Positions 5,345 through 10,340 of a stretch of DNA of 64,000 bases are shown one piece after another (the stretch's first letter is position 1; each line of letters opens with the position of its first letter). The notes beneath the pieces are model-generated. The model saw only the letters and a program-made list of their open reading frames with translations. It was not told the DNA's origin and did not search any database. The stretch spans positions 12,710,001 to 12,774,000 of the forward strand of contig OZ024743.1 in assembly GCA_964016885.1 (NCBI GenBank). The letters are read 5' to 3'. This DNA is from Eledone cirrhosa (taxonomy: Eukaryota). Position numbers and translations under genes: made by a program.

Positions 5345-6096
5345 TGTAATATAAAATACACATTATGACACATAGAAACATTAAAGGAATACGGAAGAAA
5401 ATAATTTTAATGTATCTAAATGAATGTAAAATTAAATACGGTGATGGCTGAAGGAGAAGGTCAAGGAAAATTGAGTATTCAGGCATCTTACATAGATATT
5501 GTAATTAAGGAAGTATTAAACATTTTCAGCTATAAACCCTGTCATCTTTGGCGAGTATTATGCTATTATAACATAATATAATATAATATAATATAATATA
5601 AATGATATTAAATAAACATTATGATATATAGAAACATAATGTAATTATACAGTGTAATGTTAATGACAAAGAGGAGAAACCCTGCGAAATATGAAATAAT
5701 TGAAGATTTATGACATAGAGGCGATCATAAACATATGTAGAATTGTAGACGTACATAAATAGGTAAGGTTCATACAAGGATGTATATGTACATATAATGA
5801 ATAGTCTGCTACACACACATACACACTCTCTCTCACACACACATATATCTATGTATAAAGCAGAGGCAAACATATAATGCAAATATATTTAGCCAAATTT
5901 ACTAATATATGTGCTGACATATAAACTCCTTCTAATGGTATAAATATACCTGTGTCACTCTATATACTATATATACATATATATATGTATAAATATTTCG
6001 TATCTCCAAAGAAATACGGTTTTAGGAAGCCGTAGCTATGCAAACACCGTGGGGGCTAATGCCCTCTGGTGATGTCCAGCAGAAGCAAGGGGGACA

Positions 6097-6140
6097 ACCG
6101 TCTATGCATTTCAGGCTTAACTGGCCTTCGCCAGGACGGT
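6097..6140 (-). ncRNA. Minimal type I hammerhead ribozyme motif (core variant CUGGCGA)
   Basis: Minus strand reads ACCGTC-CTGGCGA-AGGC-cagttaa-GCCT-GAA-ATGCAT-A-GACGGT: stem I, core, stem II, palindromic stem III, AUA cleavage triplet. Confidence 0.78.
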
Positions 6141-6330
6141 CCCTCCCACCGCTTGCGACTGCTGGACTAGAAGACAGGCGAGAATATATACTTTTCTCGT
6201 CCGTGTAAATGAGGTGATTAATCTCATTTGCATATGAAGCTGTATAAGTTGGCTCAACTTATAATAAAAAAGAAATAGGATTTCGCTTCAAGCATAGCTT
6301 TATACAATATGTATAAATATTTCGTATCTC

Positions 6331-6368
6331 CTGACGAAGGCCAGTTAAGTCTGAAATGCATAGACGGT
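6331..6368 (+). ncRNA. Minimal hammerhead motif with intact core but missing 5' strand of stem I
   Basis: CTGACGA-AGGC-cagttaa-GTCT-GAA-ATGCAT-A-GACGGT. The inversion breakpoint lies immediately 5' of the core. Confidence 0.7.
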
Positions 6369-6740
6369 TGTCCCCCTTGCTTCTGCTGGACATCACCAGA
6401 GGGCGTTAGCATAGCTACTTCCTAAAACCGTATTTCTTTGGAGATACGAAATATTCATACATATTGTATAAAGCTATGCTTGAAGCGAAATCCTATTTCT
6501 TTTTTTTTAATTATAGGTTGAGCCAACATATGCAGCTTCATATGCAAATGAATTACGCCGTACAGTGTTTAGGCAAAAACGTCACCTTTTTGTTCAACAC
6601 TGACACAGGAACGATGTACTAGTTTCAAGCTTATTAGCTATCGTATGTATACATATATGTATGTACGTATACATACATACTTACATTTAAGTATGTGCCG
6701 TACTAAGAGTGAGAAATGAAATTTCGTTTTATTTTATTCA

Positions 6741-6781
<41 letters not shown>

Positions 6782-6841
6782 TATAAATTTAATGACCAAC
6801 TATGGACCAGAGCAGATAGAGATAGCAATTTTGACATTACT

Positions 6842-8098
6842 ATGGGATCATCCGACTCAGCTCAGGTAACGGACCTTGTGGGCTTATTTTTAATCAATTC
6901 GCTACATAGGAAAATACCTGGTACTACCGGAGGTTTATATAGAGATGACATGCTTTTACTTATTGATAATAATAACTCTGAACTAAATAGAAAACGTAAA
7001 CAAATTACACAATTTTTTAATTACTTTAATCTTAAAATAGAAATTGAGAACAACCATAGAATAGTCAATTTCCTAGATATAACATTAAATCTCAACACAT
7101 GTCTTCACTATCCTTTTCACAAGTTGAATGAAAACTTAAACTATGTCAGCTTTAACTCTAACCACCCCAGATCTGTCAAAAACACTATAGTAAACTCTGT
7201 TCAAAAACGTATCTCTAGAATCTCGTCTAATAGAAAGATTTTCGACGAAAAAGCCCAGTACTACAATGAAGCGTTAGCTAGAGCAGGATATACTGATAAG
7301 ATTATGTACATAGATAATGATAGACAAACTAAACAAAATAACAACTATTTTAATTACGGCAACAACCTTAACAACTATAATAGAAAGCATTACAATAATT
7401 CCAAGGGTCAAAAAAGAAATAGAACTAGGAACATAATTTGGTTTGCCCCCCCTTTCTCACTAAACATTAAAACCCACATCGCTAAACTATTTTTTAAAGC
7501 TCTTGATAATCGCTTCCCTAGAACACATAGGTATCACTCAATTTTCAATAGACATACTATAAAATTAACCTACTCATCCACCAAAAATTTAGCACAAAAT
7601 ATTAATAGAATAAATAATAGGAACTTAAAACCTAGTGATAATAGCATAAATAATATACAAGTTAACAAATGTAACTGTAGAGATAGATCTAAATGTCCGT
7701 TAAATAACAACTGCTTAGTTAAAAATATAGTATACAATTGTAATGTTAAAACTGATTCTAATTCTTTTAACTACGTCGGTTCCACATCGACGGAATTTAA
7801 ACTTCGCTATAATAACCACAAGAATTCTTTCATAGATCCAAGCAAAAAATCTTCAACGGCACTATCAGGCGTACTCTGGCAACTTAAGCTAGATAACGTT
7901 AGATATTCGACGGCTTGGAATATAGTCTCAAGAGGAATTCCTTTTAATTCATCCTCTGAGACATGTGACCTCTGCGCAGAGGAGATATTCTTTATACTAA
8001 AATCTAAAAATTCCCTTAATCTACGGACAAATTTATTCAGTTGCTGCAAACATAGATTAAACTCAACTTATAAATATAAATTTAAATTTAAAATGTAG
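6842..8098 (+). CDS. 5'-truncated Penelope-like element ORF: RT C-terminal half, thumb and GIY-YIG endonuclease
   Basis: MGSSDSAQVTDLVGLF, GLYRDD, NFLDITLNL, SNHP, IIWFAPPFS, Cys motif CNCRDRSKCPLNNNC, IVYNC...YVGSTSTEFKLRYNNH, CDLC. Homology starts slightly upstream of the first Met (FDIT) after a (TA)n tract. Confidence 0.93.
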   Translation: MGSSDSAQVTDLVGLFLINSLHRKIPGTTGGLYRDDMLLLIDNNNSELNRKRKQITQFFNYFNLKIEIENNHRIVNFLDITLNLNTCLHYPFHKLNENLNYVSFNSNHPRSVKNTIVNSVQKRISRISSNRKIFDEKAQYYNEALARAGYTDKIMYIDNDRQTKQNNNYFNYGNNLNNYNRKHYNNSKGQKRNRTRNIIWFAPPFSLNIKTHIAKLFFKALDNRFPRTHRYHSIFNRHTIKLTYSSTKNLAQNINRINNRNLKPSDNSINNIQVNKCNCRDRSKCPLNNNCLVKNIVYNCNVKTDSNSFNYVGSTSTEFKLRYNNHKNSFIDPSKKSSTALSGVLWQLKLDNVRYSTAWNIVSRGIPFNSSSETCDLCAEEIFFILKSKNSLNLRTNLFSCCKHRLNSTYKYKFKFKM

Positions 8099-9401
8099 TA
8101 TATTTAGTTTGATTTATAAGTATTTGGGAAACTAGCCGATAAATCTTTCGATTTCTTCTTTTTATTCTTCTTTTTATTTTTATTTTTATTTAAACATTCT
8201 TCATGGAAAATTAAACTACCCTAAAAGTTGATGCTCGAAATATTTCGAATAAACGTTACACTAGATAAACTTCTATATTAAATATAAGAACACATGTAGA
8301 CCAAATGGGCATCCTAAACTTTTTGAAATGATTTTTGCTAGATGCGATCTGATAAATAATTTTTAGCTTTATCTGTTTTCGACTCTGATGCTTATAATGA
8401 ACTTGGCAATATATTGTCAATTAATTTTGAAGGGTTGATCTTTGTGGTTTATTTTTATTATTGTAGTATTTTCTAATATTTTTATTTTTAATATGTAATA
8501 TTTTTAATATGTAATATTTTTTCGTAATATTTTTTAGTTTTCTATTTTATTATTATTTATTTATTATTATTATTATTATTATTGTTGTTTTTTGGTTTTT
8601 GTTTCTGATATATTTTTTATTAATATATTGAAATCTGCTCTCTATTTCTGCTTGATAGATAATCTTGTAGAGTAAAGACAAGAATAGTAGTAATATAGAC
8701 TCTATATATATATGTGTATATATATACACATATGTGTATACTTAAATTTTTATAGCATCATGTAAATTCACATCGATGTTTGTAGTTATCATATAAACAT
8801 ATGAATTTTTTAAAACTAAACATAAGATCATTACTTTTCACACATTATGGATACGTGTCTCATTCAGGAATACTGATATTTTCAATATAGTGCCTGGTTT
8901 TTATACATATTTTTTATACATATTAATACTTCTACATTAAAACATAGGGTTTTTATGCCTCGCCTATGTCTGGTTACTTTTCATTTTTCTCTCTATATAA
9001 CTGCTGGTTTCTCTCCTAACCACATATATCTCCCTTACATTAATACTAGAGCTAAATAAATAAATAAATAAATAAATGTATCATTGATACGTTTACTCAA
9101 CGGATGTCCAACTACATATTTTCTATATATATTTCTATCTCTATCTATTTCCTCTCTCTATATATATCTCTCTCTGTTTCTTTACATGAAGTTCTTCTCT
9201 TTATCTATCTTTCCATCTCTCTATTTTGTTCCATGCATTTCTTCTTTTTCTTCTTTTTCTTCGTTTTCTGTCTTTCTTTCTTTTTTTTCTCTCTTTCTTT
9301 CTTTCTGTTTACAATTTTTTCACTGCCAATTCAACTTTTCAAATACAAGTCGATGTTGTACGGTATGTCAAATCTATTTATCTATAAAACTGTTTATATT
9401 G

Positions 9402-9467
9402 TATTTTGTCTGAGGAAGGCATAGCATATTGTTAATATGATATCCCTGAAATATATATAACGAAATA
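9402..9467 (+). ncRNA. Type I hammerhead ribozyme at the probable 3' end (pLTR) of the Penelope element
   Basis: TATTTTGT-CTGAGGA-[AGGcATAgCATATT-gtt-AATATGaTATcCCT]-GAA-ATATATAT-A-ACGAAATA: 8-bp stem I with one G-U pair, intact core, long stem II, palindromic stem III. Confidence 0.8.
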
Positions 9468-9507
9468 AATATGGTTTTATAAATATAGTTTCCATTTATT
9501 TAATATC

Positions 9508-9541
<34 letters not shown>

Positions 9542-9542
9542 T

Positions 9543-9935
9543 TAGGATTTAGCTTCAGGCATAGCTATATACAGCTATGTATAGAAATTTCGTATTTCTA
9601 AAGAAACACAGTATGTTTACAGGTAACATTTAGGAAGTCGTAGCTATACATAAATCCACCGGGGATAACGCCCTCTGGTGGTTTTCAGCAGAAGCAAAGG
9701 GGACAATCGCCGATGCATTTCAGACTTGACTGGTCTTCATTACAACGATCCCTCCCACGCTTGCGACTGCTGGACTTGAAAACAGTTGAGAATATATAGT
9801 TTTCTCGTCTGTGTAAATGAGGTGATTAATCTCATTTGTATATGAAGCTGCATAAGTTGGCTCCACTTATAATAGAATAGAATTAGGATTTAGCTTCAGG
9901 CATAGCTGTATACGGATATGTATAAAAATTTCGTA
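9543..9935. repeat. Diverged, terminally redundant copy of the hammerhead repeat (~341 bp period)
   Basis: TAGGATTTAGCTTCAGGCATAGCT...TTTCGTAT appears at both ends. The body is homologous to 5987-6330. A degenerate hammerhead lies on the minus strand at 9706-9749. Confidence 0.85.
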
Positions 9936-10340
9936 TATAGACACACACACACAGGCATCTCCATGCCAACACATACATCTTTTATGGAACATGAAACTAC
10001 ACAGGAATCCAACTGTATATAATGTTATGTGGATTTATATCGTAATTTGTTCATTTCTCTCTATATATATATAATTCATCCACACCTTGAATTAACCATT
10101 AAACTGATTCCATATTTGTAATTATTCCTTTTAGACCCCTCTCCCCACCCTCCTGGTTTACACCTATATTTGTATCTTCTCATTCCTATCCCTTCATAAT
10201 TATATTCATATTTTTCTCTCTTGATTATTTTTTAGCTTATATATCTTCTTTCGTTCCCCCATCTTCTTCAACTAATCCTGAAGTTCTACATATGCGACAT
10301 TTCTAAACTTTAGCTTAGATATTTCAACCTAACCCAGTTT

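Follow-up and report, generated by a model that had tools for sequence, protein, structure and literature searches.

The window, a stretch of 64,000 nt from Eledone cirrhosa, carries a non-coding, hammerhead-bearing repeat on either side of a Penelope fragment. The locus raises the question of what this repeat is and, if it is a retrozyme, what transcribes it and what copies it. The retrozyme class itself is already known; the locus bears on two questions about it in animals, the mode of transcription and the copying enzyme. A Penelope-like element (PLE) has so far been inferred as partner because the two kinds of element occur together, have hammerheads in common and show homology at the pLTR (PMC7229834; bioRxiv 10.64898/2026.07.22.740005).

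The repeat unit, its local copies and its neighbour

The unit belongs to a dispersed, non-coding family of many hundreds of copies, with units of 324 nt (subfamily A, 43% GC) and 341 nt (subfamily B, 39% GC); the ORF list contains no frame of 90 aa or more in either. A type I hammerhead lies on the minus strand of the A and B units. Exact matches to intact 32-nt cores number 503 genome-wide, against 0 for a reversed control, and a second exact-core count gave 758, again against 0; a metagenome scan for the ribozyme core gave 0 matches. Dispersed insertions are 0.2-2 units long and often head-to-head, most arms being shorter than 1.3 units, with junctions in (TA)n or (CA)n. Multimers are less common: the first 100 matches listed include three exact-core dimers.

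Table 1. Features of the retrozyme locus, in window coordinates.
Feature	Position	Strand	Remarks
Retrozyme A, left arm, 1.08 units	5983..6331	-	RNA 3' end at S1 (5983) beside TA-rich run; 5' end is the inversion junction
Type I hammerhead of arm A	6097..6140	-	damaged core CUGGCGA; predicted cut 6103/6102
GTATATA box	6185..6191	-	42 nt from octamer start; predicted start ~6160
Extended octamer ATGCAAATGAG	6223..6233	-	host U6 (L148) and RNase MRP (L199) genes carry an identical box, at -76/-77
T6 run at S2, internal in arm A	6266..6271	-	candidate Pol III terminator
Copy C, right inverted arm	6329..6551	+	internal deletion; 3' end at neither S1 nor S2
Hammerhead of copy C	6331-6368	+	5' stem I missing
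Family X inverted fragment pair	6552..6741	.	second retrozyme family
5'-truncated Hydra-clade PLE	6783..9508	+	long 3' UTR; covers residues 309-745 of the family ORF, with its stop at 8098
Hydra element's own pLTR hammerhead	9402..9467	+	long stem II; unrelated to retrozyme unit
Retrozyme B, single arm, 1.15 units	9543..9936	-	RNA 3' end at B equivalent of S2, beside (TA)n
Hammerhead of copy B	9706..9749	-	GUAAUGA core; predicted cut 9712/9711

The 324- and 341-nt units reported in the first-pass annotation, with their periods and terminal redundancy, are all present in the sequence; the redundancy is 25 nt in copy A (5983-6007 recurs as 6307-6331) and about 53 nt in copy B. So are the three hammerhead copies, with their stems, palindromic stem III, AUA or AUC triplets and three kinds of damage. 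Copy A starts at 5983 rather than 5987, and the three copies are not separate: A and C meet head-to-head at 6329-6331 as arms of one insertion, so that there are two local insertions, not three. Copy B, which has 85-89% identity to its 39 best other copies and is decayed in both octamer and core, is the older insertion, and both insertions are dead. In the family majority the core is intact; the local copies are damaged.

A repeat search over the whole window was taken up largely by a 15-nt satellite. Junctions between A and X sequence without (TA)n (6551/6552, and at locus L064) are ambiguous as template switches, since deletion or nesting would also account for them, and they carry no weight here. 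An ADAR footprint in the copies was rejected (A>G 0.65% versus T>C 0.72%, RNA strand).

The ribozyme has a helix I of 6 bp, a helix II of 4 bp and a short palindromic helix III. PLE minimal hammerheads are defined by a helix II of 7-8 bp, a short helix I and little or no helix III (PMC4209133); against that definition the motif is a canonical metazoan type I hammerhead, and its earlier assignment to the "minimal" class was wrong. Subfamilies A and B differ at core position 7, at the cleavage-site base, in one stem I pair and in two stem II pairs, all of them sites that a working hammerhead would tolerate. In the stem alignment, pairing is kept in 93.8% of cells. The covariation score is higher than in any of 500 shuffles and higher than in every slid control, while the number of doubly changed pairs, matched in 40 of 500 shuffles, is not significant; the covariation reflects about three subfamily-level events. 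The pairing-preserving changes first seen among the three copies are of two kinds: those separating the subfamilies in stems I and II are compensatory, and several of the local ones are private decay (the G-U in stem II of copy C departs from the family majority, and the two G-U pairs in stem I of copy B are not found in the B majority). A natural dimer has a predicted double-hammerhead fold (z -6.0), and the predicted circle folds have z values of -6.9, -4.9, -7.1 and -3.4. A search with the Rfam hammerhead models (RF00163, clan CL00010), which had been suggested as a check, gave no match at E<=1 to the window stretch or to A and B, intact copies included; family Y matches Hammerhead_HH9 at E 1e-5, under the gathering score.

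The Penelope fragment between the two insertions sits in (TA)n (6744-6785 and 9509-9538). An intact natural copy of its family has a 745-aa ORF in which RWK-like (RWR), DKT, CxCx5C, CxxC and CxH motifs can be picked out by eye; the C-terminal EN, hammerhead, (TA)n target and motifs agree with the description of the Hydra clade (PMC8557442), an assignment by traits and not by a tree. The full ORF found 13 relatives at 31-39% in a homologue search, and the 439-aa ORF fragment had no match in Pfam or PDB. This fragment had been put forward as a candidate helper flanked by the retrozyme. It lacks its 5' part, carries a pLTR and hammerhead of its own that are unrelated to the unit, and is younger, a later insertion than the retrozyme copies into the same (TA)n. 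That it acts locally as helper, or that the unit derives from it, was rejected: none of 19 other Hydra copies has the unit within 1.5 kb, and all 4 stretches of 8-10 kb surrounding full-length ones lack it. Fragment and retrozyme copies simply share a (TA)n target.

With a single Hydra protein as probe, Hydra-like ORF pieces were found within 1.5 kb of 6 of 84 other retrozyme loci, diverged (34-54%) and at no fixed position, and near 0 of 24 loci in a sample chosen independently of the ribozyme. By that probe the unit is independent of a Penelope ORF, and not always attached to one as an ordinary pLTR would be. The intact majority core, the stem covariation between subfamilies and this independence together support the first-pass reading of the unit as a retrozyme family.

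U6-like boxes upstream of the ribozyme

Subfamilies A and B and two further retrozyme families, X and Y, have an 11-nt extended octamer and a TATA box just upstream of the ribozyme. Family X has a 430-nt unit with its own hammerhead, and the boxes are present in its intact copies; A/B and X/Y are two lineages that are otherwise unalignable, the promoter block being the sole significant similarity between A and X. The host has the same boxes, at -76..-78 and -31, at three U6 loci, RNase MRP and U6atac (one mismatch), and in 0 of 4 U2 genes; the bounds of the 11-nt motif were drawn after both host and retrozyme sets had been seen. In B and Y the TATA box differs by one base, in B a C for the G at its start. 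Between A and B, the block lies inside a 75-nt invariant stretch (P=0.009), and its background is 5 hits per 1.25 Mb. The octamer-TATA spacing is 40-42 nt in the retrozymes versus 45-47 nt in the host (3-7 nt shorter), so the retrozyme is not filed as a type 3 Pol III member, only as working like one. Another sequence, similar to TTACCTCCCTT and found near -260 in U6 and U2 genes, resembles unit positions 6-18; those positions pair in an extension of stem I, and the resemblance was set aside.

In A, X and Y, the body from the predicted start as far as the distal 3' end is free of runs of four or more T, and a T5-6 run closes it. Subfamily A has T5+ at S2 in 59 of 67 internal passes, and its T6 run should halt most Pol III short of a full unit. 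In subfamily B, 12 of 19 matched copies carry a T6-7 within their predicted transcript, and S2 lacks the T-run.

Taken together, the boxes are probably functional, and if they are, Pol III would be somewhat the better candidate than Pol II. An unlikely alternative is a retrozyme without a working promoter, carried along by host read-through transcription, its boxes being relics or conserved hairpins. Read-through is the published default, retrozymes having been reviewed as seemingly promoterless (PMC7761336), and it would sit well with the unhost-like spacing and with the T-runs of B. The octamer and TATA box both lie within or beside predicted hairpins, so RNA structure could also conserve them. 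Against this, the same oriented 11-mer and TATA recur at near-host spacing in two unalignable lineages, over the low background given above, and the boxes are absent from the Hydra pLTRs.

Insertion ends, template and copying enzyme

The 3' ends of 103 of 122 arms fall at S1 or S2, two sites about 43 nt apart that adjoin (TA)n; in the ribozyme-independent sample (24 loci, 7 of them overlapping the first set) the figure is 34 of 39; the S1 and S2 windows make up 10% of the unit. Head-to-head pairs number 24 among 30 loci and 14 among 26, and 23 of the 24 with two canonical ends are S1/S2. The insertions have fixed 3' ends, an optional tail on one side only, variable 5' truncation and an inverted 5'-truncated copy. 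The PLE footprint consists of a tail, an inverted copy and a microsatellite target (PMC8557442), and the element PAc has two internal RT starts (PMC11167929). The end pattern matches the Penelope "tail" footprint; S1/S2 ends, head-to-head pairs and (TA)n targets bear out the earlier proposal of Penelope-type mobilisation, and the copying enzyme is very probably the protein of a PLE.

The 5' ends are spread evenly: in neither the 122- nor the 39-arm set do they pile up at the cut site or at the predicted start, and this evenness across the cut site favours a circular template. The cut site is crossed by 30 of 39 arms, and 10 of 39 are longer than one unit; arms run 5' into further unit sequence, with up to three cut sites, and not into a foreign 3' UTR. 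Derived variants are common to the arms (22%) and to the turns (19%) of the same locus, versus 4.7% between loci. Circular RNA is accordingly, to judge from the insertions themselves, quite a likely template.

It is improbable, though with some experimental precedent, that the template is instead a linear, uncleaved, multimeric read-through RNA and the ribozyme dispensable for insertion. In vitro, the main RT substrate of PAc is uncleaved linear RNA, and PAc hammerhead mutants insert normally (PMC11167929). Successive turns diverge slightly more than same-turn arms (5.6% versus 4.9%), a difference that is not significant, and a single array of about 10 units was found. A comparison of a circle with a diverged master as source (33 loci; 4.9% versus 5.6-5.9%) did not separate the two. 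Long arrays are rare, however, and this one, the longest found, is itself composed of partial tandems; 5' ends do not pile up at the start site, and the core has been kept intact through subfamily turnover.

Could the unit be the pLTR of an autonomous PLE family, and the copies its 5'-truncated ends? PLE-type ends and a type I hammerhead are both traits of pLTRs, retrozymes of Xenopus show homology to pLTRs (bioRxiv 10.64898/2026.07.22.740005), and a probe made of one Hydra protein may let other clades escape. This is nevertheless very unlikely: the arms continue 5' into the unit rather than into a foreign 3' UTR, the hammerhead is of retrozyme and not PLE minimal type, and Hydra-like ORFs are as scarce and irregular near the loci as described above. 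The comparison with autonomous elements, which covered the adjacent Hydra family, turned up none that bears the unit or its 43-nt tail. A satellite spreading as DNA, or a LINE mobilising a SINE-like element, can practically be set aside: the U6-like promoter and the T-run at one 3' end are SINE-like and LINEs also produce 5' inversions, but the two alternative 3' ends, one per side, the lack of poly(A) and the seamless passage of unit junctions do not fit.

Proposed cycle and comparison with known systems

On balance, we favour a retrozyme that has its own U6-like promoter, forms a circle of 324 or 341 nt and is inserted into (TA)n by a PLE enzyme acting in trans. A source copy would comprise the promoter and two consecutive ribozymes and measure about 480 nt or more, a form that is rare yet present. 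Directed by the octamer and TATA box, transcription would begin immediately 5' of stem I, most plausibly by a Pol III that leaks at the T-run; the read-through dimer would form the double hammerhead through its palindromic stem III and be cut twice, and a host ligase, as in other retrozymes, would close the monomer. A Penelope-type RT-endonuclease would nick both strands of (TA)n and prime cDNA at S1 and S2, which lie across the predicted circle from the ribozyme. Synthesis would roll past the cut site and the promoter, and two cDNAs would join head-to-head; with the RT rolling past it, a normally gene-external promoter would move with the element. The copies at this locus would be dead products of such a cycle.

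A wider reading is doubtful enough to be offered tentatively: that these retrozymes are self-sufficient U6-type Pol III units, at least three families sharing octamer, TATA, ribozyme, body and T-run, and that the S1/S2 ends record PLE rolling-circle retrotransposition of circular RNA. A Penelope RT rolling round the circle from two internal starts would then let a long insertion regain the promoter that is lost in ordinary U6-type retrocopies.

For the favoured cycle, the PLE integration footprint is seen on retrozyme insertions themselves, with two RT start sites given at base level, and U6-type boxes stand at a defined distance from the ribozyme. The family yields sharp predictions of where transcription starts, which polymerase acts, how large the circle is and at which two positions priming occurs. 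Judged by its listings, the literature searched, outside Dfam, Repbase and most subscription papers, held no prior description of the family or of a U6-type promoter in an invertebrate retrozyme; supplementary tables of PMC7229834 and PMC8557442 could list related motifs.

Metazoan non-LTR retrozymes (PMC7229834; bioRxiv 10.64898/2026.07.22.740005) are likewise non-coding units of 150-450 nt with GC below 50%, a type I hammerhead of canonical form whose helix III is palindromic, a well-paired predicted circle, PLE co-occurrence, and monomers with occasional multimers. They form tandem arrays, whereas the present copies are mostly dispersed, often head-to-head, with fixed S1/S2 ends; the host-type promoter boxes are a further difference, as is the homologous autonomous pLTR, not found here.

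With the pLTRs of EN+ PLEs (PAc, PMC11167929; Hydra and Naiad, PMC8557442) the family shares two adjacent 3' ends, a one-sided tail, an inverted 5'-truncated copy, a (TA)n target and a hammerhead upstream of the RT starts. It differs in having no ORF, another copy of the unit upstream of the ribozyme, and a short helix II. Its tail measures 43 nt, that of the neighbouring Hydra family about 95 nt.

The satellite 2 repeat of newts and salamanders is about 330 nt long. It too is a hammerhead repeat with an internal snRNA-type promoter, and its ribozyme is dimer-dependent (Coats et al. 1994, cited in PMC2220036). Satellite 2 is reported to be transcribed by Pol II and forms long tandem arrays; the present family consists of dispersed retro-insertions, with the boxes of U6, U6atac and MRP rather than of U2.

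Like the host type 3 Pol III genes (U6, U6atac and RNase MRP), finally, the unit has an extended octamer followed by GTATA(T/A)A, and the bodies of A, X and Y lack T4 runs and close with T5-6. B departs from the T-run pattern, the spacing is 3-7 nt shorter than in the host genes, and the promoter lies within a mobile, circularly permuted unit.

The unit, its copies and its ribozyme

The repeat unit of about 330 bp proposed in the first-pass annotation is present in 324-nt and 341-nt forms, and all three local copies bear the hammerhead fold described there, each with the damage reported. They are not three insertions, however: the first two are the arms of a single head-to-head insertion. Neither local insertion is a possible source, because neither has two ribozymes in a row. 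The locus is a heap of elements with one common target.

Positions of the features discussed (window coordinates, or host-genome loci where the number is preceded by L)
Feature	Position	Description
Unit A (minus strand)	5983-6331	324 nt; 25-nt terminal repeat
C, partial inverted copy of A (plus strand)	6329-6551	
Family X, second hammerhead repeat	6552-6741; L091:1806-3043, L021, L064, L082, L116, L127, L146	430 nt
Hydra-like ORF	6779-8098	last 437 residues of the family's 745-aa protein
Hydra pLTR end	9368-9524	contig-set depth ~50 times that of the remainder of the element
Hammerhead of Hydra element	9402-9467	long stem; in the element's own pLTR
Relative B (minus strand)	9543-9936	341 nt; 81% identity to unit A
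Tandem array	23278-44028	20.7 kb; 15-nt unit; ~1,386 copies; 89% matches
Family Y, third hammerhead repeat	L070:1770-2919, L042	468 nt; same octamer as A and X
Hammerhead families without the octamer	L082, L086, L104, L125, L132, L190; L054, L059, L089, L097, L145; L071; L105	

Searching the 3.0-Gb host genome for the unit yielded 2,650 first-look candidates; among the 40 of these that were scored, full-length matches were 93-98% identical to A. Genome counts are 503 for the intact 32-nt core, 758 for a looser A+B core, and 845 for a 23-nt piece close to the 3′ end site S1 (reversed controls 0 in each case). A copies differ from their majority by a mean of 3.6%; B is older, with 85-89% identity to its best relatives. 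Copies are dispersed across the genome, and tandem arrays are a minority form; the longest found, of about 10 units, is itself composed of partial tandems.

In the A majority the hammerhead core is complete; stem I has 6 bp, stem II has 4 bp, and stem III is palindromic. PMC4209133 separates the canonical metazoan type I hammerhead, which occurs in tandem repeats, from the minimal form of Penelope-like elements (PLEs); on its definitions the A hammerhead is of the canonical type, not the minimal one first named. The B majority differs from A at core position 7, at the cleavage site (AUC for AUA), in one stem I pair (C-G to U-A), and in two stem II pairs. The Rfam hammerhead check suggested earlier gave no match in the window stretch or in intact A and B copies; the assignment therefore rests on the motif and its variation. 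In 33 copies hand-picked among the retrieved loci (10 A-type, 23 from the B search), 93.8% of stem cells are paired, and the covariation score is 0.245, above all 500 shuffles and all slid controls; the count of pairs with double changes (6 of 16) is not significant. The signal stems from about three inherited events. Intact dimers lie at G000 C1:178646570-178646924, C1:283121279-283121637, and C1:320500501-320500857. A natural dimer, whose second core has one mutation, is predicted to fold as a double hammerhead joined via the palindrome (z -6.0), and circularised units have predicted folds with z from -3.4 to -7.1 (60 shuffles each).

Other hammerhead repeats accompany the unit. The 190-nt stretch that separates C from the Hydra copy belongs to a second retrozyme family, X. 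Stem II of its hammerhead has a U-U mismatch at the base, and stem III is palindromic; X has two 3′ ends ~60 nt apart, and it carries the same promoter boxes as A. Its contig depth is several times that of family A, a value that simple repeats may inflate. A third retrozyme family, Y, found in flanks, is 64% like X and has a weak Rfam match to Hammerhead_HH9. At least four further families lack the octamer shared by A, B, X, and Y; two have a long stem II, one of them downstream of a Hydra-like ORF in L104. These are probably pLTRs (PLE terminal repeats) from other PLE families, which differ from one another in tail length.

Insertion ends and the template

Positions on the RNA (minus strand of window 5987-6310) are numbered from r1 (window 6102), the first base past the predicted hammerhead cut. 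RNA 3′ ends cluster at two sites ~43 nt apart, S1 (r112-128, mostly r117-120) and S2 (r154-168), with (TA)n usually coming next. Of 122 arms at 74 loci (long array left out), 103 end at one of these sites, as do 34 of 39 arms at 24 loci sampled regardless of ribozyme (6 duplicate loci dropped; 7 loci common to the larger set). The 30 best-match loci contain 24 head-to-head pairs, and the 26 core-sampled loci contain 14; among 24 pairs with both ends canonical, 23 are S1/S2, one is S2/S2, and none is S1/S1.

PLE insertions are described as 5′-truncated, with an inverted copy at their 5′ end, microsatellite targets, and a tail of 30-40 bp at one end only (PMC8557442). A PLE protein is reported to nick both strands of AT-rich DNA and to begin reverse transcription at two internal RNA sites, which define the tail (PMC11167929). 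The enzyme inserting the unit is thus probably of PLE type.

The 5′ ends of the arms in both samples are evenly spread and pile up neither at r1 nor at the predicted start. In the sample taken regardless of ribozyme, the cut site is crossed by 30 of 39 arms, and 10 of the 39 are longer than one unit. Derived variants are common to the arms or turns of one locus four times as often as between loci. A template with no fixed 5′ end, most simply a circle, fits these patterns; a direct comparison of a circle with a diverged linear master gave no separation of the two templates. For the PLE PAc, uncleaved RNA is reported to be preferred in vitro (PMC11167929). Arms of family A adjoin arms of family X with no intervening (TA)n at two places (L064:1382-2443 and window 6551/6552), through either a template switch or a later deletion.

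Promoter-like boxes

A, B, X, and Y share two boxes that lie 5′ of the ribozyme on the RNA strand: ATGCAAAT(G/T)AG and, 40-42 nt further on, a TATA-like box. This octamer/TATA block is the sole significant match between A and X. The background is 5 matches in 1.25 Mb, and the block is part of a 75-nt stretch without change between the A and B majorities, against 30 differences in the rest of the unit (P=0.009).

For comparison, the upstream regions of 29 snRNA-type loci of the host were inspected. The 11-mer at -76 to -78, with GTATA(T/A)A at -31, is found in 4 of 18 U6 loci (three independent; two from one array) and in the single RNase MRP gene, and, with one mismatch, in one of six U6atac loci. 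The arrangement is missing from the other 14 U6 and 5 U6atac loci, which look like retrocopies, and from all four U2 genes; the boxes are also missing from Hydra elements. Host geometry would put the start at about r266, just 5′ of stem I. All runs of four or more T in A, X, and Y lie between the far 3′ end and this predicted start, a layout as for a Pol III unit with a putative terminator at S2.

Several points argue against a promoter. The octamer and TATA box lie 3-7 nt closer together than those of host genes; 12 of 19 matched B copies contain a T6-7 run near r56, and B has no T-run at S2; and a full unit would require read-through of a T6 run. Hairpins might also conserve the octamer/TATA block.

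Tandem arrays of U6 (~1.8-kb spacing) and U2 genes are present in the host genome (G000 C19:31.78-31.84 Mb; C3:307.35-307.45 Mb; C13:36.17-36.18 Mb). U6 and U2 genes have in common a TTACCTCCCTT-like box between about -258 and -288, and in U2 genes a TATA-like box lies near -35. Copies of U6 and U6atac that lack a promoter start directly after or near (TA)n (L195, L202, L203, L194), which points to an RT that targets (TA)n and retroposes snRNAs as well.

The Hydra neighbour, class of the unit, and a possible cycle

The neighbouring element belongs to a young and abundant family (all 96 scored matches 96-100% identical), whose 745-aa ORF has motifs fitting the Hydra clade as far as its published description goes. 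It has its own pLTR and a tail of ~95 nt. The local copy has 98.5% identity to its best relative and lies in (TA)n, flanked by older insertions. The Hydra pLTR also occurs as many very short copies, and in older subfamilies with covarying stem II (L066, L084, L094, L096, L105, L146, L194).

None of 19 other Hydra copies carries the unit, and it is also missing from four of four longer stretches. Of 84 other unit loci, 6 have Hydra-like ORF pieces nearby, which are diverged and in no fixed position; none of the 24 loci of the ribozyme-blind sample has any. In its testable features the unit agrees with non-LTR retrozymes, as characterised in the available parts of PMC7229834 and bioRxiv 10.64898/2026.07.22.740005, with the tandem form in a minority only, and it lacks the tested features of a pLTR. 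The proposal that this Hydra element is the helper loses its local basis, but Hydra-type enzymes are still candidate helpers, as are the (TA)n-targeting Naiads, which have been reported from cephalopods (PMC8557442). Among the papers listed in a literature search, none describes the A/B family.

Source-type copies, with promoter and two ribozymes, do occur (e.g., L087, L189-L192); among the 26 core-sampled loci there is one (L074). These would likely be transcribed by Pol III; read-through dimers would likely be cut twice and then ligated into circles; and a PLE protein would likely nick both strands of (TA)n, prime on them at S1 and S2, and roll through the unit junction and promoter. Of this cycle, the copy structure, ends, target and identity of the motifs are observed in the sequence, the folds are predictions, and transcription, cleavage, the circle and the enzyme are inferred.

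PLE involvement in retrozymes has been inferred from co-occurrence, shared hammerheads, and pLTR homology (PMC7229834; bioRxiv 10.64898/2026.07.22.740005), and the available parts of these two accounts hold no report of tail ends on retrozyme insertions. Retrozymes are described as seemingly promoterless (PMC7761336); a Pol II snRNA-type promoter is, however, reported for newt satellite 2 and a Pol III promoter for a schistosome satellite (both as cited in PMC2220036).
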